64,000 bases of DNA. Source: Aulosira sp. ZfuVER01 (lineage in GTDB: Bacteria; Cyanobacteriota; Cyanobacteriia; Cyanobacteriales; Nostocaceae). The position numbers were made by a program, and so were the translations under genes. This document shows positions 2,897 to 19,217 of the stretch, one piece after another. Under the pieces are notes generated by a model. That model was not told the origin of the DNA. It saw only the letters and a program-made list of their open reading frames with translations, and did not search any database. How positions within the stretch are numbered: position 1 is the stretch's first letter; each line of letters starts with the position of its first letter. The stretch spans positions 224,001 to 288,000 of the forward strand of contig JAVRCV020000052.1 in NCBI GenBank assembly GCA_034530615.2, in the 5' to 3' direction.

Positions 2897-4177
2897 CTAA
2901 GCTGGTTTGAGGACAACTACACCATAAGCATCAGGAGAAAGATATTGTTGTGCGGCTTGCATCAAGTCTCTAGCTTCCTGGGCTTGGATATTAGCAGGAT
3001 AGTTAAAGGCTGGTTCTAAATCTCCTAGCATGGACTGATAGTAACCATACAAGCCAGCGCGATCGCTTGGTGTTTCATTGGCGAAAATAAATCTGTTGGC
3101 TACTCGTCGCCGCACGCGAGCAATTTCCGATTCTTTAACCAACTCTGTTTGTAACATCCGGATATGTTGAGCGATCGCTTCTTCTACCGCCTGTAAATTT
3201 TCTACTGCACACTTAGCCGAAATATAAAACGTCCCTTGCAGTTGGTTACTCATATTACTCACAGCAATCGAAGATACCAGACTCCTTTCTTCCCGCAAAT
3301 CCTGCACCAGCCTTGATGTCCGTCCGTGTCCCAAAATTCCTGCTAAAACATCTAGTGCGTAAGTCTGCTCAATATACCGCAACCCAGGAACCCGCCAAAC
3401 CATTACTAGTCGTGCTTGCTGGAGAGCTTCATCAATGAATTCTTGACGGACAATTTCTGTAAACACAGCTTCAGGATGAAGTACTGGTTCTACCCCAATT
3501 TCAGAGTCTTTGCTGTGAGTAGCTTGATTAATTCCTTCCGCCACAATTTCAATTAATTCTTCTGTGGGTAAATTACCTACAGCCACAGCCGTAATTGATT
3601 GAGGTTGATAAAAAGCTGCGTGGAAATTTCGCATCTGCTGGGGTTGGAGTTGGGAAATCACTGATTCCGGCCCCAATACCGGACGGCGATAGGGTAAGCG
3701 CTCAAAAGCCATTTCCATTGACCGCCGAAAAGTCCGACGCTGAGGATTATCTTCTGAACGCCTAATTTCTTCTAGCACTACAAAGCGTTCCCGTTCAAAA
3801 GCATCATCCTCAATACTGGGATTAAATACTACATCTATTTGTAGCGGAGCCAGATCGGCAAAATCCTTGGGAGCAGTAGTTATATAGTAGTGAGTGTAAT
3901 CTTGGCTTGTAGCAGCATTAGTAATGGCTCCACGCTCTTCAATTCGACGTTCAAATTCGCCACTAGCTAGGCGTTCTGTTCCCTTAAAAATCATATGCTC
4001 TAAAAAGTGAGCAATGCCGTTTATGGTATCCGATTCTACCGCCGAGCCAACCTTAACCCACAAACTCAGGTTAACAGCGTCAATCGGCATTTGCTCTACT
4101 ACTATTGTCAAACCGTTGGGTAACTGGTGCAGCTTTGGAGCATTCAGACGAGGAAATTTTACCAGGGTTGAGGTCAT
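2897..4177 (-). CDS. M16 family zinc peptidase (pitrilysin/processing protease-like)
   Basis: Inverted zinc motif HFLEH in GIAHFLEHMIFKGT, NAATSQDYTHY, ERFVVLEE. Confidence 0.93.
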   Translation of the reverse strand: MTSTLVKFPRLNAPKLHQLPNGLTIVVEQMPIDAVNLSLWVKVGSAVESDTINGIAHFLEHMIFKGTERLASGEFERRIEERGAITNAATSQDYTHYYITTAPKDFADLAPLQIDVVFNPSIEDDAFERERFVVLEEIRRSEDNPQRRTFRRSMEMAFERLPYRRPVLGPESVISQLQPQQMRNFHAAFYQPQSITAVAVGNLPTEELIEIVAEGINQATHSKDSEIGVEPVLHPEAVFTEIVRQEFIDEALQQARLVMVWRVPGLRYIEQTYALDVLAGILGHGRTSRLVQDLREERSLVSSIAVSNMSNQLQGTFYISAKCAVENLQAVEEAIAQHIRMLQTELVKESEIARVRRRVANRFIFANETPSDRAGLYGYYQSMLGDLEPAFNYPANIQAQEARDLMQAAQQYLSPDAYGVVVLKPA

Positions 4178-4282
4178 TGGTAGTTGTGAGTGGTGAGGTG
4201 AAAAGCTTGCTTACTCCTTTATCTTATCTACGACTGAAAACAACTAACGTAATGACTTCAATCTGAGAATTTGCTGAGTTGA

Positions 4283-4298
4283 TGTAGAAACAGTTACA
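4283..4298. promoter_or_regulatory. Candidate NtcA-binding site between the divergent M16 peptidase gene and crtD
   Basis: tGTA-gaaacagt-TACa matches GTA-N8-TAC with the preferred flanks; no TAN3T at canonical 21-23 nt spacing. Confidence 0.4.
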
Positions 4299-4416
4299 TA
4301 AATTTCTGGTTTACTTACTTTCTTGGTGGATGAACTGTTTGAGGATGCATTTATGAAGCTCTCCGCCGCTGTAAAATTATGAGTAGCAATATTAAGAATT
4401 ATAAAAACAAATATCA

Positions 4417-5928
4417 ATGTCTAAGTTTTCGCTTGACAAAAAAGCACCCCGTATAGTTGTCATTGGTGCGGGAATCGGTGGGTTGACTGCTGGAGCATTA
4501 TTAGCTCATAGAGGTTACAGCGTCTTAATCGTGGATCAAGCCCTTGTACCTGGAGGTTGTGCTTCCACTTTTAAACGCAAAGGATTTACCTTTGATGTCG
4601 GAGCAACCCAAGTCGCCGGGTTGGAAGCAGGGGGTATTCATCACCGGATTTTCTCAGAATTGGAAATAGATCTTCCGGAGGCGACTCCATGCGATCCAGC
4701 TTGTGCAGTTTACCTCCCTGGCGAATCAACCCCAATTAACGTCTGGCGCGACCCAGAAAAATGGCGGGAAGAACGTCAACGACAGTTTCCAGGTAGCGAA
4801 CCGTTTTGGCAGTTGTTGGCGACTTTGTTTCAAGCTAGCTGGGAATTTCAAGGACGCGATCCGGTGCTACCGCCACGCAGTTTATGGGATTTGTGGCAGC
4901 TAACTCAGGCAGTACGTCCGAGTACATTAATTACTGTCCCGTTTACCTTGTTTACCGTAGGCGATGCTTTACGCTTATATGGATTAGGTAACGATCGCCG
5001 TTTGCGGACTTTTTTAGATTTACAACTCAAGCTGTATTCCCAAGTCAATGCAGAAGAAACAGCTTTACTATATGCTGCCACTGCCTTAAGCGTATCTCAG
5101 CTACCCCAAGGATTATTTCACCTCCAAGGTAGTATGCAAGTATTAAGCGATCGCCTGGTAAAATCCTTAGAAAGAGATGGTGGCAAATTATTGATGCGCC
5201 ACACTGTCGAAAAAATCACAGTAGAAAATGATCGAGCCACATCTGTAACGATTCGCAATCGGCAAAGCGGCGAAGTCTGGACAGAAACAGCCGACCATAT
5301 AGTTGCAAATGTTACTGTCCAAAATCTCGTGCAACTATTGGGCGAACAGGCTCCATCTGGCTATAAACAGCGCGTGGAAAAATTACCCCCAGCATCAGGG
5401 GCGTTTGTTGTATACCTGGGAGTAGATGCAAGTGCCATCCCCTCTGGATGTCCGCCCCATCTGCAATTTTTATACGATTCGGATGGGCCAATTGGAGAAA
5501 ACAATTCCCTATTTGTCTCTGTCAGCCATCCCGGAGATGGTCGCGCACCGGATGGTAAAGCCACAATTATCGCTTCTTCCTTTGTAGATACACGGATGTG
5601 GTGGCGGACTGAGAATTATGCAGAACTGAAGCAGAAGTATACTGAAGAAGCGATCGCCCGCCTAGGGCAATACTTCTACCTCAAACCAGAAACGATAATA
5701 CACCAAGAAGCAGCCACACCTCGAACTTTTGCGCATTACACAGCACGTGATCGCGGTATAGTTGGTGGCATAGGTCAACGCATCCCCACCTTTGGCCCCT
5801 TTGGTTTTGCCAATCGTACACCCATCAACCATCTTTGGTTAGTTGGCGACTCCACCCACCCAGGTGAAGGGACGGCTGGGGTGAGTTACTCGGCACTGAC
5901 TGTTGTTAGACAGATAGTCAGTGCATGA
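4417..5928 (+). CDS. crtD: Carotenoid C-3',4' desaturase (myxoxanthophyll pathway)
   Basis: FAD-binding VIGAGIGGL, PGGCASTF, FDVGATQVAGL, C-terminal LVGDSTHPGEGTAGVSYSA typical of cyanobacterial CrtD. Confidence 0.85.
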   Translation: MSKFSLDKKAPRIVVIGAGIGGLTAGALLAHRGYSVLIVDQALVPGGCASTFKRKGFTFDVGATQVAGLEAGGIHHRIFSELEIDLPEATPCDPACAVYLPGESTPINVWRDPEKWREERQRQFPGSEPFWQLLATLFQASWEFQGRDPVLPPRSLWDLWQLTQAVRPSTLITVPFTLFTVGDALRLYGLGNDRRLRTFLDLQLKLYSQVNAEETALLYAATALSVSQLPQGLFHLQGSMQVLSDRLVKSLERDGGKLLMRHTVEKITVENDRATSVTIRNRQSGEVWTETADHIVANVTVQNLVQLLGEQAPSGYKQRVEKLPPASGAFVVYLGVDASAIPSGCPPHLQFLYDSDGPIGENNSLFVSVSHPGDGRAPDGKATIIASSFVDTRMWWRTENYAELKQKYTEEAIARLGQYFYLKPETIIHQEAATPRTFAHYTARDRGIVGGIGQRIPTFGPFGFANRTPINHLWLVGDSTHPGEGTAGVSYSALTVVRQIVSA

Positions 5929-5964
5929 GTCAACAGTCAAGGGTCGAGGGTCATTAGTACGTTG

Positions 5965-6200
5965 TCTCCCCTTCGGGTACTCTACCCTACGCTGCGGCAA
6001 CCCTCTTCTCCTGCGGAGACGCTAACGCGAACGAGGGAAAGGGAACGCTTTCAGCGAAAGAGTTCTCCTTTGGAGTACGCACTCACCTGCGGAGGAGCCA
6101 CTGCGTTGGGCGGCTTTGCCGACTTGAAGCAAGTGGCGTTGGAAACCCTCCTGCAGCGCTGTTTCACCTTGTCTCTCTTGTCCTCCTTGTCCCCTCTTCT
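5965..6200. repeat. Stack of nested GC-rich small dispersed hairpin repeats
   Basis: Several short inverted repeats. A 44-bp element (6096-6139) sits between the arms of ctgcggagg...cctcctgcag and is related to 2823-2866 and 58998-59040. Confidence 0.7.
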
Positions 6201-6222
6201 CCGCTAGCTATAACATTCCAAA

Positions 6223-8259
6223 TTACAATCCCGTTGTTGTCGGTGTCGTCGGGGATGGTTCAGGCGCAGGCTGAGGTTCTGGATTCAGAAATTGCCGCCA
6301 AGTTCTAATTTGCTCTTGTGCCGCACTGTAAGCAGAACTACCTCTAGGAACCAATTTGGCAGTTTCAATGCCCTTGTAAATATCAGACTGTCCCTGAGAA
6401 CGGGCGATATCTAACAATTGCTGACTCCATTGGTCAATAGCGATATTAGCATCCATCCGTAAGATGTTACGTCTGGGAACTTGTTGAGCTAGTTGTATGG
6501 CGTTTACCAAAGCTTCTGGTGTGCCAGCTAATGCCGCATCCCGAGCTTTTTGCCAGTTTTCTTTGGCGCGGATTTGCCCTCGCCAATCGTTTATCGCCTC
6601 TTGTGCTTCCCCAGAAAGTGCCCGTCCTGATGAGGCAATTTGTTCGGCAGCGCTAATAGCAGCAGGTAAATTTCCACTCTGAGCCAAGTCTCTTGCTTGA
6701 TCCAAATAAGGCTGGTCCTGAATTCGCTGAATCTTTGCTGTCCAATTCCGGATTTTTCTGCGTGCTTCTGGATACAAAGCTCGACCATTCCGGATTTGGC
6801 CGGCTTCCGATATCGCAGCTTGCAAGGAGGTAACATCTTCCAGCAATGCTATTTGCTCGGCTCGATCCAAGAAAGGTCGGTCTTGAATTGTTTCTACTTG
6901 GGCTTGCCAGCGTCCCGCCTCTTGTCTGGCTTCGCTAGCGCGGGGGTTACTACTGGGAATCAGCTGTGTCTGGGCGATCGCTGCTGTCAAATCGCTAATT
7001 GTTCCTTGGCTAGCCAATGTTCGCGCTTTTTCTAGGCGGGCAACATCTTCAATTTCCAACTGCCATCGCGCAATCAATTGTTGTGCTTTGTTATACACAG
7101 CCCTGGAAGGATCGATTTGTTGTGCCTGAGAAATGGCTGTCTGTAACCCGGAAATATTCCCAATCCAAGCACTTCTTTGCGCCTCAGCCAAACTAATAAA
7201 GTCTTCAACTTGTGTTTGCAGCCCAGTATTTTCGGGAATTTGTCTAGCAATATCTAAAGCTGTATCTGCATCTCGTTTATCTAGGTTTTTCTGCGCCAAA
7301 TCCAACATCTTACGTCCAAATGCCGGAATTGACTCTTGAGCTTTCTGATAAACGTAACTACTCTGATTAATTGATTCAGCGATTTTTATAGCTTCGAGTA
7401 GCTGATCGGGTACGCCACTCTTAGCTAAACTCTCAGCTTTTGCTAATTTTTCACCATCTTCCCGCGCTGTAGCAATTAGCTGATTTAATTGATCGTACTT
7501 AGTAGTTGACCAGTATTTATTGTCCAGACGTAACAATTTAGCAGATAGCATAAAAGCTGATTGCCAGTGCCTTTCCCGCAATTCTGCTTCTGCTTCCCGA
7601 TAAATCTCTTCTCCTCTAGACCAGATCGACTGCCATTTAGTAATTTTTTCTTCTACTAATTTATACGCAGATAAATCGTCAGGTATCTTACGTGCAGTTG
7701 CGATCGCCTCATCTAAATTTCCGGCTTGAAAACTTTGATCGGCTAGTTGCAAAATATCCTCTGACCACCGTTCTATGAAGCGATCGGCTTCTGTGCGCAA
7801 TGGGTGGTTTTTGGGCAATTGCTTCACTAACCCAATTGCTTGCAGTAAGTCGGTTACGGTTTGTTTAGAAGCTGCTAACTGAGCGCAGTGTAGCCGTACC
7901 GACTCACTAGCTAAAGGCCAGAAAATTTTCGGGCAGTTAGGAGCTGCTGGCAATTTTAGTAACATAGCCACAGCCAGGAAACCAACTCCACCGGGAATTA
8001 AGGTTAACATTAATAACCAAAACACCCAGTTTTGCATCCAGCGGGGCAATTTACTGAAAATATAATTGGGTGAAACAGTTTTTTCTGACTGATTATTTAA
8101 AGGAAATCCTTCGGAATTATTATCTGTTTGCCGCTTCACTGACTTAGAGTTAGAACCAGTAGTTTCACTGAATTGTGTTGTTTCGGATAATCTCTTTATC
8201 TCATCCGGATCTCTGGATCTGCCTCGGGACCAACTGTCTGTAATATCCCGCTCTGTCAT
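6223..8259 (-). CDS. Conserved cyanobacterial membrane-anchored alpha-helical repeat protein (function unknown)
   Basis: Single N-terminal TM, LPAAPNCPKIFWP motif, recurring AI..A.QI...Y..AQ..I..W helical repeats; no Walker A seen. Confidence 0.75.
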   Translation of the reverse strand: MTERDITDSWSRGRSRDPDEIKRLSETTQFSETTGSNSKSVKRQTDNNSEGFPLNNQSEKTVSPNYIFSKLPRWMQNWVFWLLMLTLIPGGVGFLAVAMLLKLPAAPNCPKIFWPLASESVRLHCAQLAASKQTVTDLLQAIGLVKQLPKNHPLRTEADRFIERWSEDILQLADQSFQAGNLDEAIATARKIPDDLSAYKLVEEKITKWQSIWSRGEEIYREAEAELRERHWQSAFMLSAKLLRLDNKYWSTTKYDQLNQLIATAREDGEKLAKAESLAKSGVPDQLLEAIKIAESINQSSYVYQKAQESIPAFGRKMLDLAQKNLDKRDADTALDIARQIPENTGLQTQVEDFISLAEAQRSAWIGNISGLQTAISQAQQIDPSRAVYNKAQQLIARWQLEIEDVARLEKARTLASQGTISDLTAAIAQTQLIPSSNPRASEARQEAGRWQAQVETIQDRPFLDRAEQIALLEDVTSLQAAISEAGQIRNGRALYPEARRKIRNWTAKIQRIQDQPYLDQARDLAQSGNLPAAISAAEQIASSGRALSGEAQEAINDWRGQIRAKENWQKARDAALAGTPEALVNAIQLAQQVPRRNILRMDANIAIDQWSQQLLDIARSQGQSDIYKGIETAKLVPRGSSAYSAAQEQIRTWRQFLNPEPQPAPEPSPTTPTTTGL

Positions 8260-10609: not shown

Positions 10610-11944
10610 TTACAAATTGGTTGTGAGCCTTGCTTTTCTCAAAACAAATGTCAGAACCGTCTCTTGTTTGGAAATTATGTCGGCGGTTACTTGCATACCA
10701 GGTTGAATGGCATAGGATTGATTGCCTTTGGTGAGATGAAGTCTATCTGGCTGGATAGTCACCTCATAGTAAGGTGAAACCCCGATATTACTGTTAGTTT
10801 GAGGTGTAATCGCATCGGCGGTAATGCCTCTGACAGCGCCATTGATAGTGCCATAATCCGGATAAGGATAGGCAGAGATTCTCATAATTACTTTGCCTTC
10901 TGAACATTCAGTGACTTGAGCAGCTTTGCATAAGCGAACCTTACTAATATCAGCAGCATCTACACGAGCTTTGACTAGCAAAGGAGCTTGACTAGGAGCA
11001 ATTTGAGCGATCGCTTGTCCTGGTTGTACAACCTGGCCAGGATTTCTGATGTCCAGTTTCAAGACGCTTCCGGCTTCTAAAGTCCGAATCACAGTTTTTT
11101 GTAAATCCCGATTAATTTGTGTAATTTCTTGCTCGTCTAGGTTAATTTTATTCTGAAGGGCTATTTGACCTTGGATCAAGCTTTCTCGTTCTTTATTCAA
11201 TGCGGCGAGGGTAGACTCACCCTTGGCTTTTTCTTGGGCTATCCGTTCTTGGGTCATCGTCACAGCAGCTATACTCGGATTGAGTCCAGTTTTAGCGCGT
11301 TGCAGTTTGGCGATCGCTGCTTTAAAAGCTTGTTCTTTTTCCTTAATTTGCAGTGTGGCGATCGCTCCCGTATTACCTAACTGTTTATACCGCTTCAGTT
11401 CTTCCTTGGCAAACTCTAAAGTAGCTTTTGCTTCTTCTACTTCTGATTGAGTGATATTTTGTCTATCTTGATATTCTCTTTGATTACGACTGAGATCTGC
11501 TTTTGTCGAAGCTATCTCCCTTTGGATGGAATTAGCCTCAGCAGTTATTTGAGTTTGTAGCGCCTTCAATTGCGCATTTATTTGCGAAATTTGTGATTGA
11601 TTCTGTCGAATATTGTCAATGAGTTGGCTTTTTTTAGTCAGGAGTTGAGAGTCATCAATGATTGCGATCGCTTCACCCTTGGCAAGCGTCTGATTTTCTT
11701 TTACTAAGATAGCTTTAACAATTCCTTGACCTGATGCCTCAATAATTCTCTGTTCTCCTGCGGGACGGACAGTCGCAGGCGATCGCACAGTAATCGGATA
11801 TTTGATAATCGCCGCTAACAAAACCGCCAAACCACAAGTTCCGATCAAAACAACTCCCCCCAATTTTGTCCAACGGCTAATCGCCGGAACAAGTTCGTCA
11901 ATTTGGATTTGACGCAGTAATTCTGGGTTATGTTCACTCAGCAT
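10610..11944 (-). CDS. HlyD-family membrane fusion protein, copy 1
   Basis: N-terminal TM, VRPAGE...GIVKAILVKENQ lipoyl-like half, long coiled coil, AYPYPDYGTI, IQPGMQVTADII. Confidence 0.93.
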   Translation of the reverse strand: MLSEHNPELLRQIQIDELVPAISRWTKLGGVVLIGTCGLAVLLAAIIKYPITVRSPATVRPAGEQRIIEASGQGIVKAILVKENQTLAKGEAIAIIDDSQLLTKKSQLIDNIRQNQSQISQINAQLKALQTQITAEANSIQREIASTKADLSRNQREYQDRQNITQSEVEEAKATLEFAKEELKRYKQLGNTGAIATLQIKEKEQAFKAAIAKLQRAKTGLNPSIAAVTMTQERIAQEKAKGESTLAALNKERESLIQGQIALQNKINLDEQEITQINRDLQKTVIRTLEAGSVLKLDIRNPGQVVQPGQAIAQIAPSQAPLLVKARVDAADISKVRLCKAAQVTECSEGKVIMRISAYPYPDYGTINGAVRGITADAITPQTNSNIGVSPYYEVTIQPDRLHLTKGNQSYAIQPGMQVTADIISKQETVLTFVLRKARLTTNL

Positions 11945-12188
11945 GAGTAGAAAACCAGCGCTAAATAAAAGTTAATAAAAATGTCGCTAGAGTCTGATTG
12001 ATATGAGGCTTGCTTTAGTCTTCATCTCTGCTAAATGTGTTGGCTTGAAAGCTACACATCAAATAACCGCCTCATAATCAAAATTTATCTATATTTTACT
12101 GTTTTTTTAATTTTTGCTTAATCTTCCTTTAATAAATGAATCTGATGTCAATACTCAATCTCTTCCATCAGCAATTTTACTGGATAAT

Positions 12189-12230
12189 TGTAGCCTGAGT
12201 TACAAAAAAAATTAATATAAAAAATACCAT
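12189..12230 (+). promoter_or_regulatory. Candidate NtcA-activated (class II) promoter pointing at the RiPP precursor
   Basis: tGTA-gcctgagt-TACa (GTA 12190-12192, TAC 12201-12203), then 21 nt, then TAccaT at 12225-12230. Confidence 0.6.
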
Positions 12231-12698
12231 CTTAGTTTTTTCTAGAAATTGCTCATTTAATTTACAAAAATTTAAAAATATATCTACTCATAAAAATCAA
12301 TTTCTCTACGCTGAGTAGAATAGCAGAGGTCGTTATGGTTAAAAAAATTTATAATTCTCAGCCTGCGTATGAGATGTCATAACCTTTGATAAATCTCAAA
12401 CAAGGAGGTTGATAAAGTTGAGAAACTTCCTTTATCAAAAAGGCTTATCTCTCTAGATATTTATACTTATCTCTATCTAAAGGATGATTTTCGCTGGAAA
12501 AAATAGCATTTAGTATAAATTGCATGAGTTAGCGCAAATCAATCAATTCAAACATTAAGAGATCAGATGCATTTACCAAGTTAAATGCACAAATTTTGAA
12601 CAGGTTAATTGATTGATGCTGACTTATAAATTGCTCAATCAATTATCAGAGCAATTTCCATTCAAACCAAAATTTGAATTAGGAACGGAGGCTTTATA

Positions 12699-12878
12699 AT
12701 GGCTAACGCATCAGGTTATGAACTATTTTCAATTTCTGAAAATTTTTTAACAGAATTATCAGCAGAAGATGAGTCTATAATTACAGGTGGCGGTGGCTCC
12801 TGCTACGGTGGAAGTAAGAGCAAGAGCAAGAAGAGCAAGAGCAAGAAGAGCAAGAGCAAGAGCAAAAAGTACTGCTAA
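12699..12878 (+). CDS. RiPP precursor peptide (59 aa): double-glycine leader and Ser/Lys-rich core
   Basis: Manual translation: MANASGYELFSISENFLTELSAEDESIITGG|GGSCYGGSKSKSKKSKSKKSKSKSKKYC*. RBS GGAGG at 12687-12691; ELS-x-E-x5-TGG leader motif. It lies directly upstream of the kinase, HopA1 and C39-ABC genes, and falls just below the apparent 60-aa cutoff of the ORF track. Confidence 0.9.
   Translation: MANASGYELFSISENFLTELSAEDESIITGGGGSCYGGSKSKSKKSKSKKSKSKSKKYC
12816..12860 (+). repeat. Perfect 15-bp tandem repeat x3 (AAGAGCAAGAGCAAG) encoding (KSKSK)3
   Basis: Copies at 12816-12830, 12831-12845 and 12846-12860, followed by partial AGCAAAAAG. Confidence 0.95.
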
Positions 12879-12976
12879 TAAACTCTGTAAAGGGCAATTA
12901 ATAGGACTAGTAGTTATAGCCCATTAACACAGGTTTCATTCTTTAGCTAAGGCTTCAAACCTATTTTGTTATAAAG

Positions 12977-13029
12977 CTTGTTGTAAAAATTTGGAAACTA
13001 CCGCTCCATATTTTTACAACAAGTTTCTT
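12977..13029 (+). terminator. Stem-loop between precursor and kinase (terminator or mRNA stabiliser)
   Basis: Perfect 14-bp arms CTTGTTGTAAAAAT (12977-12990) and ATTTTTACAACAAG (13010-13023), inner TGGA/TCCA pair, followed by TTTCTT. Confidence 0.65.
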
Positions 13030-13106
13030 GCAAGAATTTTTGGTTAATTTTTTTGATTTTGCGAGCAGTGCAGTTATCAGATTTCTTTTCAAATTAAGTA
13101 TAGATA

Positions 13107-14246
13107 ATGACATTTTTATTAAGCGATAGCAATTTTTTAGAGCATCTAATTGAACATAATTTATGTGAGGTTAAAGAACTAAAGATTAGCCAAATTGAAT
13201 CGAAAAGTTGTAAAAACTTTAATTTATTAGTGGTTTTCTCCAATAATCACCATCTGCTGATTAAGCAAGAACGCCATAACAAAGAAGGTAAAACTCATGG
13301 TGAGTTCTTGCAAGAATGGCGCATTCATGAGTGGTTGCAAAATTTTCAAGAACTAAGTGAATTTCGCGCAATTATATCTGAGGCGCTGCATTTTGATCCC
13401 ATTCGCTCAATTATTATTTTTAATTACCTTAACGAATATTGTGACTTAGAAGATTTTTACGACAACGAACATATTTTTCCCCAAGAAATCGCAGCATCTT
13501 TGGGAACAAGTGTAGCCACAATTCATCGCAAAACTTGGAAATGTCAGAAATATAAAGAATTTTTAGCAAAAGACTCTCAAGATATTAGCAAACATCCTAA
13601 CTTTCTCCGTGGTTTAGAAAGAATTAAACCAGAAATTTTTGCTCATATTTCTCTTGAGAATCTAAAATTCTTTAAGCTCTATCAGCGCCATGATCGCCTG
13701 AGACAAGCGATCGCTCAACTACAAACTGCTTACCAAAGTTGTTGTTTAATCCACAATGACTTAAAGCTTAACAATATTTTATTGCATAACCAATGGAAGC
13801 AATCCCCAAATCAAGCCATAGTTCGCTTGATTGATTGGGAAAAATTTGCTTGGGGAGATCCAGCATTGGATCTAGGAACAATCATCGCTAGTTACTTAAA
13901 TATTTGGTTAGGGAGTTTAGTTATCAGTACAGATATTGATTTGCAAACAGCTTTGCGGTTAGCCGGTACTCCCCTAGATCAGATCCAACCTAGTATATTT
14001 TCTTTAATAAAAGCTTATTTAACTCACTTTCCCGAAATTTTGAAGTTACGTCCTAATTTTTTGCAATTGGTAATGCAATTTACTGGTCTGGCATTAGTTG
14101 AAAAAATACAAATAAAAATAGATTATCACGAAGCTTTTGGCAATATAGGTATCTGTATGCTTCAGGTTGCCAATACTTTATTGTGCCATCCAGATAAATC
14201 AATCCCGATTATTTTGGGACACAGCGCCTCTGAGCTAAATTTTTAA
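13107..14246 (+). CDS. APH/phosphotransferase-family kinase (LanK/TvaC-like RiPP Ser/Thr kinase)
   Basis: KNFNLLV, LLIKQE, catalytic loop LIHNDLKLNNIL, LIDWEK, WGDPALDLG; context next to the precursor and HopA1 gene. Confidence 0.85.
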   Translation: MTFLLSDSNFLEHLIEHNLCEVKELKISQIESKSCKNFNLLVVFSNNHHLLIKQERHNKEGKTHGEFLQEWRIHEWLQNFQELSEFRAIISEALHFDPIRSIIIFNYLNEYCDLEDFYDNEHIFPQEIAASLGTSVATIHRKTWKCQKYKEFLAKDSQDISKHPNFLRGLERIKPEIFAHISLENLKFFKLYQRHDRLRQAIAQLQTAYQSCCLIHNDLKLNNILLHNQWKQSPNQAIVRLIDWEKFAWGDPALDLGTIIASYLNIWLGSLVISTDIDLQTALRLAGTPLDQIQPSIFSLIKAYLTHFPEILKLRPNFLQLVMQFTGLALVEKIQIKIDYHEAFGNIGICMLQVANTLLCHPDKSIPIILGHSASELNF

Positions 14247-14302: not shown

Positions 14303-15391
14303 TTGATGATGCAATTGCGAGATTTACTACCTCATGAGATACCAAATGCTGCCTTAGAAGACATCGTTACCAAGGTTCAGATTCAATCTGACTTTACTAT
14401 TACCCATGCAGATTACCAACCTTTAAAACTTGCTGATGAAATCGTAGTATCTCTTCAAAACTTACCGATCGAAATCCAGAATAGGTATTTGAATCTGCAA
14501 TTGCGGAATTTTCTCTATGGCATTTATTACAATGGCCAATTAAAAGCTACCCTAGCAAACAATGTAAATCCAGATAGTTTATTAGAAATAAAAAAGCTAG
14601 AGAATAATCAAGCTGGCGCATTCAACCGAGAATTTTACGAAGACTTGCAGAAAAGTAACTGTGGTAAAGGCTACTTTGATCCAAGATGGCTTGTAGTGAA
14701 GCAAGAAAGCGATCATCTACTTGCTGTGCAAAAAGATGATTTGACATTGCATATTGAACCAGAACGCTATCTGCAATTAGCTGAACAATCGGCTAATGTT
14801 GGTGATGAAGTTGCTGTGCTGATGCCTCCTAACCTAATAGAACAGGCATATTATGTGGCAGTAAGTGATGCAGGTTTGGTGAATAAAACTCTTGCAGTAA
14901 ATATTAATTTTAATTTTATCTCTGAAGGTGCGATCGCATTGATGAAAAGTCTGACACAGCAACTTAACGAAATCAATATCCCTTTCACTTTTAAGGTTTT
15001 ATACGATCCTGATAATTACCAGCGTTGTGACTGTGGGGTGCTGCAATTTGAAAGTCACAACTACCACATAGTAAAGCAAATTCTTCAGACTGTGTATATA
15101 GCAAACAAATGCCTTTTTCGGGATTTAGTACCTCTGTTTACAAAGTTACTAGCGCCAGGGCTGAGTTTAGCAGAAGAACCAAATAATAAATTTACTGACC
15201 AAGAGAATTTTGGCATGAACCGCTGCCGAATATTGGCTAATGCCTTATTAGAAGCTTGGCAAGAAGGTGACAACTCCCAACAAGGAAAAATGCATTATGT
15301 AGATCGGCATTTCTCCCAACACTTAATTGATCTGCAACGCCCTTATCTTAATGCCAACTCTGAGGATATCTATCCGATGTTGGATTGTTGA
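14303..15391 (+). CDS. HopA1-domain protein (LanY/TvaD-like phospho-lyase family)
   Basis: GYFDPRW, IPFTFKVL..P..Y.R.D.GVL, PLFTKLLAPGLSLAEEP, FGMNRC..LA.AL recognised as typical of cyanobacterial HopA1-family proteins; start may be ATG 14306 or 14309. Confidence 0.8.
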   Translation: MMMQLRDLLPHEIPNAALEDIVTKVQIQSDFTITHADYQPLKLADEIVVSLQNLPIEIQNRYLNLQLRNFLYGIYYNGQLKATLANNVNPDSLLEIKKLENNQAGAFNREFYEDLQKSNCGKGYFDPRWLVVKQESDHLLAVQKDDLTLHIEPERYLQLAEQSANVGDEVAVLMPPNLIEQAYYVAVSDAGLVNKTLAVNINFNFISEGAIALMKSLTQQLNEINIPFTFKVLYDPDNYQRCDCGVLQFESHNYHIVKQILQTVYIANKCLFRDLVPLFTKLLAPGLSLAEEPNNKFTDQENFGMNRCRILANALLEAWQEGDNSQQGKMHYVDRHFSQHLIDLQRPYLNANSEDIYPMLDC

Positions 15392-15480
15392 TTAGATGAT
15401 GACGATTAATTACCCTATTACCAGGGTGCGCGTTATAGCATGATTGTATTTGCTTGATCGGGGATATTTAGGATAGGGAT

Positions 15481-17634
15481 GTGTCTAATCTAAAATACCG
15501 AGTTATAAGACAATATAGCGAAGAAGATTGTGGGGCTGCTTGTATTGCTTCTATTGCCAAATATTACGGACGGAGTTTTGCTCTCAACCGCATCCGTGAA
15601 GCGGTAGGCACTGGGCAACTGGGAACTACTTTGTTAGGTCTGAGACGAGGAATAGAAGCTTTTGGCTTTAATGCACGTTCCGGCAAAGCATCATCCGATT
15701 TTCTCCACAAGCTGGAACAAATGCCCTTACCAGCAATCATCCACTGGAAGGGTAATCATTGGGTGATTTTGTACGGTCGGCGCGGTAAAAATTATATCAT
15801 TGGCGATCCTGCCATTGGTCTACGTTATCTCTCCAAACAGGAGTTAATTGAGGGTTGGACTAATTGGGTACTGCTACTCTTACAGCCAGATCCCAAGCGT
15901 TTTTTTGTCCAATCGGATGACAAAACTAACCACCTGGAGAAATTTCTTCGGTTAATCCTACCCTACCGAGGTGTGATTTTTGAAGCTGTACTTTGTGCCC
16001 AATTTATTGGTCTGCTTTCTTTAGCTTCACCTTTCTTTATTCAAATTCTCACGGATGATGTTTTAGTTAGAGGAGATTTTCAGCTGCTTTTTGGTATAGT
16101 GCTGGCAGTTACAGTGATGTATATTGTCAGAAGTGGGCTGAAACTAGTAGAAAATATTCTAATAGCTCATTTTGCGCAACGTTTAGAATTAACTTTAACC
16201 CTAGAATTTGGTCAACAAATTCTCCGCCTCCCACTTTCTTATTATGAGTCTCGTCGTAGTGGTGAAATTGTTAGCCGATTAAGAGATATTCAACAAATTA
16301 ATAAATTAATCGCCGATGCGATCGTGAGTTTTCCCAGTAAGTTTTTTATTGCCAGCGTTTCTTTTATCTTGATGTTATTTTATAGCTGGAAACTGACAAT
16401 CACAGGCTTAGCAATCGCTGGGGTGATGACTCTATCTACAGTAGTTTTTCTGCCCGCACTCCAGCAGAAAAATCGTAAACTCATGGTTTTAGAAGCCGAA
16501 AACCAAGGTGTGCTAGTAGAAACATTTAAGGGAGCATTAACGCTAAAAACTACTACAGCTGCTCCGGAATTTTGGGAAGAATTTCAGCGCCGATTTAGTC
16601 AATTAGCAAACCTGGAATTGAGTACTATAAAAATTGCGATTATTAATAAGCAATTTTCTAGGTTAGTTTCTGATATTGGTGGTGCTACCTTACTATATAT
16701 TGGTAGTAGCCTGGTGATTAGCAAAGAGTTAAGTATCGGTCAGTTGCTAGCATTCACTAGCCTCAATTATAATGTTGGGTCTTTAATTGATTTTTTTGTT
16801 GACTTTGCAGACGATTTTACTCGTGTCAGAACAGCGACATCAAGACTTCAGGAAGTCGTCAATTCTACACCAGAAACTCAAGGAGATGCTAACAAATCTT
16901 GGACAGAAATTCCTGATAATGCAGACATTGTTTGCAGCAACCTAAACTTTCACTATCCTGGCAGAGTTGAATTACTAGAGAACTTTTCTGTTACTCTTCC
17001 TGGTAGTAAAGTCATTGCTCTAATTGGCGCATCAGGTTGTGGTAAAAGTTCTCTGGCAAAAATCATTGCTGGGTTATATACAACTCAATCAGGAAATATC
17101 CGCTTTGGCATTTATAACCAGCAAGATTTGTCTTTAGACTGTCTGCGAAGACAGGTGGTGCTTGTTCCCCAAGAACCTCACTTTTGGAGTCGTTCAATTA
17201 TTGAAAATTTTCGCTTAGGTTCTCCCAACGTTTCCTTTAAAAAAATTGTCGAGGCTTGCCGAATTGCTGAGGCTGATGATTTTGTGAGCAAGCTACCCGA
17301 AAAATATCAAACCGTTTTAGGTGAATTTGGTGCTAACATTTCTGGCGGACAAAGACAAAGATTAGCCATAGCTAGAGCAATTGTCAACGATCCACCCATT
17401 CTGATTTTAGATGAATCAACTGCTGGACTCGATCCTGTGAGCGAAGCTAAAGTTTTACATAAACTATTCTCCTATCGTCAAGGTAAAACCACGATTCTCA
17501 TTAGCCACCGTCCCAGAGTAATTGAACGTGCTGATTGGATTGTGGTATTAGAGCAGGGTAGGTTGAAAATACAAGGTTCTTTAGAAAAATTGCGATCGCT
17601 ACCTGGTAAGCATTTAGATTTTTTAACTCCCTAA
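15481..17634 (+). CDS. Peptidase-containing ABC transporter (C39 + TMD + NBD; LanT/SunT-type)
   Basis: QYSEEDCGAAC (catalytic Cys), HWKGNHW (His), GDP (Asp), Walker A GASGCGKS, ISGGQRQR, ILILDES, ISH. Confidence 0.95.
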   Translation: MSNLKYRVIRQYSEEDCGAACIASIAKYYGRSFALNRIREAVGTGQLGTTLLGLRRGIEAFGFNARSGKASSDFLHKLEQMPLPAIIHWKGNHWVILYGRRGKNYIIGDPAIGLRYLSKQELIEGWTNWVLLLLQPDPKRFFVQSDDKTNHLEKFLRLILPYRGVIFEAVLCAQFIGLLSLASPFFIQILTDDVLVRGDFQLLFGIVLAVTVMYIVRSGLKLVENILIAHFAQRLELTLTLEFGQQILRLPLSYYESRRSGEIVSRLRDIQQINKLIADAIVSFPSKFFIASVSFILMLFYSWKLTITGLAIAGVMTLSTVVFLPALQQKNRKLMVLEAENQGVLVETFKGALTLKTTTAAPEFWEEFQRRFSQLANLELSTIKIAIINKQFSRLVSDIGGATLLYIGSSLVISKELSIGQLLAFTSLNYNVGSLIDFFVDFADDFTRVRTATSRLQEVVNSTPETQGDANKSWTEIPDNADIVCSNLNFHYPGRVELLENFSVTLPGSKVIALIGASGCGKSSLAKIIAGLYTTQSGNIRFGIYNQQDLSLDCLRRQVVLVPQEPHFWSRSIIENFRLGSPNVSFKKIVEACRIAEADDFVSKLPEKYQTVLGEFGANISGGQRQRLAIARAIVNDPPILILDESTAGLDPVSEAKVLHKLFSYRQGKTTILISHRPRVIERADWIVVLEQGRLKIQGSLEKLRSLPGKHLDFLTP

Positions 17635-17726: not shown

Positions 17727-19061
17727 CTATAAATCTGTTAGCAACCTTGCTTTTCTTAACATAAATGTCAATACTGTTTCTTGTTGGGCAATAATTTCAG
17801 CCGTTACTTCCATCCCAGATTGAATAGCATAGGATTGATTGCTTTTGCTCAGATTGAGTTGATCGGGCTGGATGATTACCTCATAGTAAGGTACAGATGC
17901 GAGATTGCTATTAGTTTGAGGCGTAATTGCATCAGATGTAATACCTCTGACAGCACCATTTAGCGTACCGTAATCTGGGTAAGGATAGGCAGAAATCCGC
18001 ATAATGACTCTACCCTCTGTACATTGCTTTACTTGGATGGCTTTACATAGCCGCACTTTACTAATATCAGCAGCAACTACACGAGCTTTAACAACTAAAG
18101 GCGCTTGATTGGGGGAAATTTGCGCGATCGCATCTCCAGCGCGTACCACTTGTCCAGGATTTCGGATTTCTAGTTTCAGGATAGTACCTGTGTCTGAGGC
18201 TCGAATGATAGTTTTTTGTAGGTCTGTTGAGACTTGTTTGAATTCTGTTTGAGCAGTGTTGATTTGGTTTTGAATTTCAACGTGGCGACGGATTAGTTCT
18301 TCTTGTTCTTTCTTCAAAATCGCCAGGGTAGATTCACCCTTGGCTTTTTCTTGAGCAATTCGTTCACTTGCGATCGCTACTGTTGCATTACTAGGGTTAA
18401 GTCCAGCTTTGGCACGTTGGAGTCTAGCCAATGACGCTTTAAACGCCTGTTCTTTCTCCTTAATTTGCAGAGTGGCGATCGCTCCTGTATTCCCCAGTTG
18501 CTGATAGCGCTTCATTTCTTCCTTAGCCAATTCTAGAGCGGCTTCCGCTTCTTGCACTTGTGTCTGAGTAGCGATCTGTTGGTCTTGATAATCCCGTTGG
18601 TTGCGACTTAAGTCAGCTTCAGCAGAGGCGATCGCTCGTTGTATAGAATTAGATTCAGCAGTGATTTGAGTTTTTAAGGCCTTGATTTGGGCAACAATTT
18701 GTGCTAACTGTAAATTATTCTGGTGAATCGTGCCTAAAATTTGGCTTTTTTTGGTTTCCAGTTGAGTAGAGTCAATGTAGGCGATCGCATCCCCCTGATT
18801 GACTACCTGATTTTCTTTCACCAAAATACTTTTGACAATTCCTTCACTAGTTGATTGCACTAAGCGGACATCACCAGTCGGACGGACTGTGGCAGATGCG
18901 GTAACGGTGACATTGTACTGAGTCACCCCAGCCAAAATCAAAGCTACACCTACAGTTCCAATGAGGAATAAACCCCCTAATGTTGTCCAAAGACTAATTG
19001 GTGGCAGAAATTGGTCACTGCTGATTGGGCGAATCAAGTCGGGACTGGGGTCGCTATGCAT
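17727..19061 (-). CDS. HlyD-family membrane fusion protein, copy 2
   Basis: Probable start MHSDPSPDL at 19061 gives 444 aa, the same length as copy 1; shared blocks such as QLGNTGAIATLQIKEKEQAFKA and MRISAYPYPDYGT. Confidence 0.92.
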   Translation of the reverse strand: MHSDPSPDLIRPISSDQFLPPISLWTTLGGLFLIGTVGVALILAGVTQYNVTVTASATVRPTGDVRLVQSTSEGIVKSILVKENQVVNQGDAIAYIDSTQLETKKSQILGTIHQNNLQLAQIVAQIKALKTQITAESNSIQRAIASAEADLSRNQRDYQDQQIATQTQVQEAEAALELAKEEMKRYQQLGNTGAIATLQIKEKEQAFKASLARLQRAKAGLNPSNATVAIASERIAQEKAKGESTLAILKKEQEELIRRHVEIQNQINTAQTEFKQVSTDLQKTIIRASDTGTILKLEIRNPGQVVRAGDAIAQISPNQAPLVVKARVVAADISKVRLCKAIQVKQCTEGRVIMRISAYPYPDYGTLNGAVRGITSDAITPQTNSNLASVPYYEVIIQPDQLNLSKSNQSYAIQSGMEVTAEIIAQQETVLTFMLRKARLLTDL

Positions 19062-19217
19062 GAGCGCGAGAATAAGTAAGCAGCATATCAATTTACACAC
19101 AATAAATCCTGTATAGTCAATGGAAATACTACGGGGTTTTTTGTGGCTGCCTTAATTTCACTCTAACCTTCAGCAGCTAGGGCTTGCTCGACTGTTAATT
19201 TTATACTTGAGGTGTTG

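Follow-up and report, generated by a model that had tools for sequence, protein, structure and literature searches.

A conserved peptide precursor with a Ser-Lys repeat core and its remodelled LanY-like partner in the cyanobacterium Aulosira

Described systems and the Aulosira locus

In cyanobacteria, pairs of a HopA1-like protein and a phosphotransferase are encoded beside short peptides with a double-glycine leader and a hypervariable core, and 570 of these cyanobacteria-only 'Family 1A' peptides, in 183 clusters, have been described (Eyles et al. 2021, PMC8153245). They are also termed 'type-B' putative LanA (PMC9486802), and in the literature that we searched no characterised product of a cyanobacterial Family 1A system was found. 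Here we analysed one such locus in a 64,000-nucleotide stretch of the genome of Aulosira sp. ZfuVER01 (contig JAVRCV020000052.1, positions 224,001 to 288,000), referred to below as the window. Its open reading frame (ORF) 12699-12878 on the forward strand is a genuine, conserved precursor of a peptide made on the ribosome and modified after translation (RiPP) of the LanK/LanY-type ('Family 1A') pathway, with a core rich in Ser and Lys. New here is that, within a published, uncharacterised family, the peptide falls into a separate subfamily of basic-repeat cores whose lyase partner is remodelled. The description draws on gene conservation, genomic context, folds and residue substitutions.

The locus shares with Family 1A the double-glycine leader type, the adjoining phosphotransferase and HopA1 genes, the cyanobacterial host and the hypervariability of the cores. 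Two basic-repeat examples, of Pleurocapsa CCALA 161 and of Cyanobium PCC 7001, already stand in the supplementary table of the published family, whose row for Calothrix sp. NIES-2100 holds a 109-amino-acid (aa) ORF, not the Ser-Lys peptide (PMC8153245); we found this 109-aa ORF in that genome as well. The difference is that basic S/T-K/R cores and altered HopA1 residues are not singled out in the accessible part of the published account (PMC8153245).

The LanK/LanY pairs of class V lanthipeptides offer a second comparison. CaoK phosphorylates and CaoY eliminates, and cyanobacterial 'type-B' putative precursors were noted by the van der Donk laboratory (PMC9486802). LxmKY is a solved heterodimer (PDB 9DK1), for which LxmK was found to be poorly soluble without LxmY and the leader was modelled on the kinase C-lobe (PMC12141560). 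Like these pairs, the Aulosira locus has an APH-fold kinase beside a HopA1-fold partner; the partner matches the LxmY fold and keeps the equivalents of Lys219 and Arg229, and the leader is predicted to lie on the kinase C-lobe. It differs from them in that the equivalents of Arg187 and Tyr236 are Asn and Gln, in its double-glycine leader, C39-ABC exporter and Ser-Lys core, and in a cluster whose fully accounted ORFs include no LanX cyclase, LanD or reductase (LanD was not given a search of its own).

Among the products of lanthipeptide-type enzymes, phospeptin and salivaricin 10 are phosphorylated RiPPs, and the end product of the phospeptin pathway retains its phosphate as phosphoThr (PMC12639078), as is predicted here. 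Phospeptin differs in its class II LanM-like enzyme and in its organism, and phosphorylation in the present system is a prediction. Like the double-glycine peptides exported by C39-ABC proteins, the Aulosira precursor is accompanied by a C39 domain with a catalytic Cys, fused to an ABC transporter, and by two HlyD genes. Ser alternating with Lys or Arg is also found in diatom silaffins, eukaryotic RS-domains and protamine, where phosphorylation turns a polycation zwitterionic. The likeness to these proteins is compositional only; their biosynthesis differs and homology is not claimed.

The precursor gene and its relatives

The precursor gene, which heads a compact cluster, comprises the following elements.

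12687-12691, forward strand: Shine-Dalgarno-like GGAGG, 7 nt before the ATG, read from the sequence
12699-12878, forward strand: precursor ORF with ATG start, 59 codons
12699-12791, forward strand: leader, aa 1-31, ending in the invariant G30-G31 (translation and alignments)
12792-12878, forward strand: core, aa 32-59 (GGSCYGGSKSKSKKSKSKKSKSKSKKYC), and stop codon (translation; S/K/R-repeat cores in orthologues)
12816-12865, forward strand: (AAGAGC)n or 15-nt tandem repeat coding for the Ser-Lys tract (Tandem Repeats Finder)

Translation of the ORF gives MANASGYELFSISENFLTELSAEDESIITGGGGSCYGGSKSKSKKSKSKKSKSKSKKYC, which divides into the leader MANASGYELFSISENFLTELSAEDESIITGG, with ..ENFLTELSAEDESIITGG immediately before the core, and the core itself. 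The leader of 31 aa is acidic, with 6 Asp/Glu and zero Lys/Arg, and the 28-aa core holds 11 Lys, 9 Ser, 4 Gly, 2 Cys and 2 Tyr. The original prediction, made from the letters of the window alone, had named this ORF, its GGAGG, its acidic leader and this count of Ser, Lys and Cys, all of which translation and composition confirmed. It had left the cleavage site uncertain because of the GGGG run; that uncertainty was settled by an alignment of 21 sequences, in which G30-G31 is invariant while the subsequent glycines vary, so that the cut is predicted after Gly31. The 8.03-Mb genome has 36,389 ORFs of 40 aa or more, and the precursor alone among them contains a 20-residue segment with at least 17 Ser+Lys. 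The precursor had zero matches to Pfam or NCBIfam families, in Calothrix sp. NIES-2100 the orthologue bears the annotation of a hypothetical protein, and no further ORF with a double-glycine leader was found in the intergenic region 11900-13150 of the window.

Relatives were collected through the likeness of HopA1 and through that of the precursor. HopA1 homologues are present in 198 of the 201 sampled genomes of the same family, and the Aulosira genome itself has four kinase/HopA1 pairs. Upstream of the kinase, each of the nearest HopA1 relatives (64-85% identity) encodes a peptide that shares the leader and carries an S/K/R core:

Calothrix sp. NIES-2100 (L040; same GTDB genus, syntenic orthologue): core GGCSHGRSKSKSRKHKRSKSRSKSRKYCR
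Genome G020 (L038): core GKRGKYNSSKSGSKSRSKSRSKSKS, no Cys
Genome G164/Nostochopsis (L039): core CGSSKSKSKSKSKDKNRDHGCGC

A search with the precursor profile added two Rivularia metagenome-assembled genomes, one with the member GRKGSKSKSKSKSKSKSKSKSKSRSRSGGHYC and the other with a frameshifted leader, and a Brasilonema contig, all three with the same gene layout; one Rivularia member has a single Cys. The expectation that the leader would be conserved beside homologous kinase/HopA1 genes was thus borne out in other cyanobacteria.

The tandem repeat under the Ser-Lys tract (period 15, 3.1 copies, 100% matches) makes this DNA slippage-prone, with length variation likely to arise by slippage, and because the length of the repeat unit is divisible by three, slippage preserves the frame. 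One could regard the ORF as non-functional, a chance frame through an (AAGAGC)n microsatellite in a decaying cluster, an idea favoured by the position of the core on the repeat and by the 831-bp deletion in HopA1 and the C39 domain of the Calothrix sp. NIES-2100 cluster. Yet despite the slippage-prone DNA the in-frame leader and the S/K frame are kept in relatives of other genera, among which repeat length and Ser/Lys/Arg usage differ; the ribosome-binding site is good, the cluster genes in the window are all intact, and the alternative frames of the repeat (RARAR.., SCSCS..) carry no leader. We consider a chance frame extremely improbable.

Profile searches widened the group. One returned 27 related peptides, a search across the genomes of the order gave matches in 61 of 401 (some over the leader only), and an exhaustive search yielded 106 cluster representatives at E<=0.001. 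Among 97 newly inspected short matches, 67 were basic by a composition filter. The cores are of (SK)n, (SR)n, (TR)n, (GSKK)n, poly-Arg or Lys/His type, frequently with Cys/Pro/His tails, and follow a leader of the pattern ..FLTDLSxEDESxIxGG ahead of the basic low-complexity sequence. We compiled 42 basic-repeat cores, most of them strongly enriched in Ser/Thr. Precursors were detected by regular expression (those of L061, L105 and L112 were read by hand) and a few leaders were mis-split, so the core counts (42 compiled, 97 filtered) are approximate. The order precursor-kinase-HopA1-ABC was strict in all basic-core loci that reached far enough. By sequence comparison, the precursor belongs to a coherent basic-repeat subfamily, whose conserved property is the basic Ser/Thr repeat.

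A quasi-symmetric CY...YC frame that could close a macrocycle had been proposed, and as a family trait it did not hold: Cys is lacking from 16 of the 42 cores, in 26 it follows the tract and in only 10 does it stand on both sides, and even among the closest orthologues the G020 core has none and one Rivularia member has a single Cys. The CY...YC frame is therefore a recurrent option, not a rule. Cys/His-rich endings (CGCGSYC, CGCHGYC, CCYCH, ...PCH) recur in the family, even where the HopA1-like protein is without the catalytic Lys, which hints at disulfide formation or metal binding rather than lanthionine.

Three further observations concern the relatives. The same leader type also heads an acidic KDDDD-repeat core, amphipathic poly-Arg/Ile cores, Ser/Thr-free cores and a His/Lys/Tyr-rich core (P0035, P0045-P0047, P0074 and P0098). 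The deletion in Calothrix sp. NIES-2100, 831 bp corresponding to window positions 14995-15825, takes HopA1 from about aa 231 on together with the C39 domain of the ABC exporter; the locus is also without the second HlyD gene but retains an intact precursor gene, and this cluster seems to be in decay. On a metagenome contig (L067, 6272-8743), the profiles of kinase and HopA1 match one and the same ORF of 823 aa, a natural fusion beside an Arg/Ser-rich core.

The kinase and the predicted docking of the leader

The gene downstream of the precursor encodes the kinase.

13107-14246, forward strand: APH-fold Ser/Thr kinase, LanK/LxmK-like, 379 aa (Pfam APH PF01636, 36.9 bits; NF038156)

NCBIfam NF038156 (class V lanthionine synthetase subunit LxmK) matched at 82 bits against a 315-bit cut-off, over positions 14-343 of 347. 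The kinase motifs IKQE, HNDLKLNN and IDWE..WGDPA are intact, and the catalytic Asp motif is kept in 44 of 45 kinases. A model of the kinase with the precursor scored 0.78, as compared with 0.02 for the best of 3 controls; the 0.78 mark is reached by 116 of 157 solved complexes and by 2 of 215 mismatched pairs. The runs had at least 64% of contacts in common and a predicted local distance difference test (pLDDT) value of at least 47 for the partner. In the modelled interface, aa 3-20 of the leader meet residues 279-294 and 349-368 of the kinase C-lobe. The hydrophobic LF...FL segment of the leader is predicted to dock on the kinase C-lobe, the model expressing likeness, not binding. The C-lobe of LxmK has been described as leader-binding, and the predicted docking agrees with this (PMC12141560); searches of the PDB returned no solved leader-LanK complex.

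These data bear on whether the precursor is modified at all. It might instead be cleaved from its leader and released as an unmodified polycation, a protamine- or polylysine-like bacteriocin or signal, with the kinase/HopA1 pair acting elsewhere or vestigial. A C39-ABC exporter with HlyD suffices to process and export a double-glycine peptide, as in the export of class II bacteriocins, and some basic cores of the family (P0074, P0098) are free of Ser/Thr. The accessible text on Family 1A likewise reports no conserved Ser/Thr/Cys in the cores (PMC8153245). On the other side stand the strict gene order, the conserved catalytic motifs of the kinase, the Ser/Thr enrichment of most cores and the modelled leader-kinase docking with its wide separation from the best control (0.78 against 0.02). 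We regard an unmodified product as improbable, and the precursor as very probably a real substrate of the adjoining kinase system.

Active site of the HopA1/LanY-like partner

The second enzyme of the pair is encoded directly after the kinase.

14303-15391, forward strand: HopA1/LanY-like protein, 362 aa from TTG (Pfam PF17914, 180 bits)

Its homologues begin at MQL, two codons past the TTG. The AlphaFold2 model of the protein has a pLDDT of 88, and the top Foldseek match is LxmY (9dk3_B; E 4.8e-16, template modelling scores 0.69/0.79); next in rank come HopA1 effectors, class III lyase domains and OspF. Residues were mapped by sequence/profile alignment to LxmY, and CaoY numbers were assigned by a constant +2 offset:

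Asn200 of the window protein: LxmY R189, CaoY R187
Lys231 of the window protein: LxmY K221, CaoY K219
Arg241 of the window protein: LxmY R231, CaoY R229
Gln248 of the window protein: LxmY Y238, CaoY Y236

Two of the four LanY catalytic residues (Lys231 and Arg241) are thus kept, and the other two are replaced by Asn200 and Gln248. In CaoY, elimination was nearly abolished by R187A and abolished by K219A, which left phosphopeptides, and Tyr236 is the counterpart of the SpvC Tyr in alpha-proton abstraction (PMC9486802). As the equivalents of CaoY Arg187 and Tyr236 are lost, phosphate elimination by the Aulosira protein is expected to be weak or absent.

We then compared core type with active-site residues in a set of 46 aligned HopA1-like ORFs (50 fetched sources). 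The Arg is kept in 20 of the 46, all 20 with the Tyr, and for 13 of these a precursor was detected, with non-basic cores. It is lost in the other 26; 25 of these adjoin basic-repeat cores, and the one that does not belongs to a degenerate second pair in L048. No fetched HopA1-like partner of a basic-repeat core has the CaoY R187 equivalent. Among the 26 Arg-less proteins, 22 are also without the Tyr (Q, N, R, K, E, G, M, T or W instead), 3 keep it and 1 is truncated; the catalytic Lys is lost as well in 8. In the basic-core group the HopA1-like protein is less conserved than its kinase (mean difference -0.063), and in the group with the full R-K-R-Y set it is more conserved (+0.061). Judged from these alignments, the lyase-like partner is altered in exactly the basic-repeat subfamily, where the kinase motifs are intact.

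The L048 exception (G181, contig C99) deserves description in its own right: its ORFs 3552-4646 and 5371-6525 form a degenerate tandem second pair, with HNNIQFQK in the kinase and V-E-L-K in HopA1, and an intact pair adjoins them.

Several points weigh against a partner that has lost elimination. The window protein retains the catalytic base Lys231 and Arg241. Within its own clade across genera, HopA1 is 64-67% identical, as against 61-62% for the kinase, and Gln248 is conserved in four genera; this conservation and the shared Gln248 indicate purifying selection and function, not decay. An N, D, E or Q at the Arg position might suit a polycationic substrate whose own Lys/Arg assist elimination. 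The basic-core members L100, L105 and L112 keep K, R and Y, three of the four residues. The mapping to CaoY is indirect, because it relies on equal spacing via LxmY and used no CaoY sequence. Basic cores without Ser/Thr (e.g. P0074) mean that basic character, not Ser, may be the selected trait. Finally, the R-K-R-Y proteins form one clade (SH-aLRT, the Shimodaira-Hasegawa-like approximate likelihood ratio test, 96) in an unrooted quick tree, drawn from its midpoint without the truncated L040 and without L099 (identical to L065), and with the fused L067 trimmed; the Arg change is a single split. The two groups were also gathered differently, the one through likeness of HopA1 and the other through likeness of the precursor, and for both reasons the association of core and residue does not represent independent events. 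As the tree shows one split, we do not claim independent losses of the Arg.

Proposed fate of the core serines

From the residue substitutions and the genomic context we infer phosphorylation, missing elimination, cleavage and export. The acidic double-glycine leader would dock via its LF/FL motif on the C-lobe of the APH-fold kinase, as modelled, and the kinase, in complex with its HopA1/LanY-like partner by analogy to LxmKY, would phosphorylate the core serines repeatedly. Phosphate elimination by the LanY-like partner would be weak or absent, the C39 domain would cut after Gly31 and the ABC/HlyD machinery would export the 28-residue core. Up to 9 phosphoserines set against 11 Lys would shift the charge from about +11 to net negative, and the product would leave the cell as alternating phosphoSer/Lys, zwitterionic to net anionic, rather than as a polycation or a dehydrated lanthipeptide. 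We put forward this sequence of leader-guided multi-Ser phosphorylation, weak or no elimination, cleavage after Gly31 and export as a tentative scheme, somewhat short of probable; that most serines remain phosphorylated in the product is likewise nearly, though not quite, an even matter. The idea of phosphorylation, already present in the original prediction, gains support from a HopA1-like partner without two of the four residues to which mutagenesis of CaoY or comparison of structures had assigned importance in phosphate elimination.

The main alternative is that the kinase/HopA1 pair still acts as a class V dehydratase. Ser would then be converted to dehydroalanine (Dha), giving a (Dha-Lys)n polycation, to which Cys and possibly Lys would add non-enzymatically or by an unknown cyclase, forming lanthionine or lysinoalanine before export. 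The retained Lys231 and Arg241 would fit this, as would the purifying selection on HopA1 within the clade of the window protein, with its conserved Gln248, a possible adaptation to cationic substrates by N, D or E at the lost-Arg position, and the Cys placed after the tract in 26 of the 42 cores and on both sides in 10. Characterised LanK/LanY pairs do dehydrate Ser/Thr (PMC9486802), and a known cyclase is missing from some class V pathways (PMC11186320). Dehydration is harder to reconcile with the loss of both the R187 and the Y236 equivalents, given the near abolition of elimination in R187A, and with the 16 of 42 cores that are Cys-free; the cluster has no cyclase, reductase or LanD (no dedicated search for the LanD family was made). 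In L102, L103, L107, L108, L111 and L116, moreover, HopA1-like proteins without the catalytic Lys stand beside Cys-rich tails, so that the Cys of the family need not serve lanthionine formation. We consider dehydration a real possibility, on balance a less probable one.

Should the phosphates persist, this would be the first class-V-type system turned from dehydration to poly-phosphorylation, an example of an enzyme retained as a structural pseudo-enzyme partner and a gene-encoded means of making zwitterionic peptides with dense phosphorylation. If dehydration occurs instead, LanY would work without two residues held to be important, and on a polycationic substrate. Either outcome concerns kinase/HopA1 pairs that are almost universal in this cyanobacterial family (198 of 201 genomes) and for which no characterised product was found in the literature. 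A further step would be an unrecognised RiPP class in which LanK, with a silenced LanY as 'pseudo-lyase' stabiliser, places many phosphoSer/phosphoThr on (S/T-K/R)n cores that serve for masking or as secreted phosphopeptides; we think this unlikely. The phosphates could reversibly mask a protamine-like antimicrobial in the producer, with phosphatases removing them after export, or the secreted zwitterionic phosphopeptides could act on sheath mineral or metal chemistry. Sheath-forming sources are common among the members (Calothrix, Rivularia, Scytonema, Brasilonema), as are Cys/His-rich C-terminal tails.

The cluster and its surroundings

The remaining features of the cluster are listed below.

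10610-11944, reverse strand: membrane-fusion/adaptor protein of the HlyD family, 444 aa, gene divergent from that of the precursor (Pfam HlyD_3, Biotin_lipoyl_2; TIGR01843, 140 bits)
12974-13026, forward strand: A/U-rich hairpin with a 17-bp outer stem, in the precursor-kinase spacer (RNA fold of 12870-13110, z = -2.28)
15481-17634, forward strand: C39 peptidase-ABC exporter, 717 aa (Peptidase_C39 115.8 bits, ABC_membrane, ABC_tran; catalytic-Cys motif EEDCGAAC)
17727-19100, reverse strand: second HlyD-family adaptor, 457 aa (Pfam HlyD_3; TIGR01843, 154 bits)

Pfam matches on these ORFs and on the kinase and HopA1 genes bear out the earlier picture, in which a double-glycine-leader precursor has a kinase, a HopA1-like protein and an exporter of C39 type as its neighbours; the matches of the exporter to TIGR03796 and TIGR01193 lie under the cut-offs of these models. 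An HlyD gene stands in orthologous loci at the place equivalent to 10610-11944. Every cluster gene in the window is intact, and the genes that flank the cluster are housekeeping genes. The fully accounted cluster ORFs contain no second APH-like gene, and the contig of the window has no LanC-like gene; the two LANC_like matches of the genome are on the contigs C17 and C22. A shared phosphatase, cyclase or immunity gene was not found in the orthologous loci, where the flanking genes vary by locus.

The spacer hairpin recurs at the same place in 7 of 7 orthologous loci folded, with energies of -17 to -35 kcal/mol (no shuffle control). A consensus terminator scan made no call on the forward strand at 12974-13026, and a consensus promoter/terminator scan of 11900-13200 returned nothing useful on that strand; on the reverse strand it gave 1 promoter-like site, with 5.3 expected, and 1 terminator-like site. 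The hairpin is a possible attenuator, terminator or mRNA stabiliser, and it fits a putative attenuator/stabiliser that would raise precursor mRNA over enzyme mRNA.

Paralogous pairs in the Aulosira genome

The other kinase/HopA1 pairs of the genome stand in different settings. At C11:17990-20476 a pair has Gln at the HopA1 catalytic-Lys position, and no precursor was detected beside it. At C55:81495-88000 a pair is surrounded by several double-glycine peptides of hydrophobic character, two Nif11-like ORFs and one that is radical-SAM-like. On contig C17 (333-12634, L117), a LanM (DUF4135 and LANC_like, 1101 aa) comes after a pair that has all four R-K-R-Y residues; next are two Cys-rich double-glycine precursors, a peptidyl-prolyl isomerase (PPIase), an HlyD adaptor and a cNMP-binding C39-ABC exporter. 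This cluster looks like a conventional lanthipeptide system, and the R-K-R-Y pair together with the LanM means that two dehydration systems stand in one cluster.

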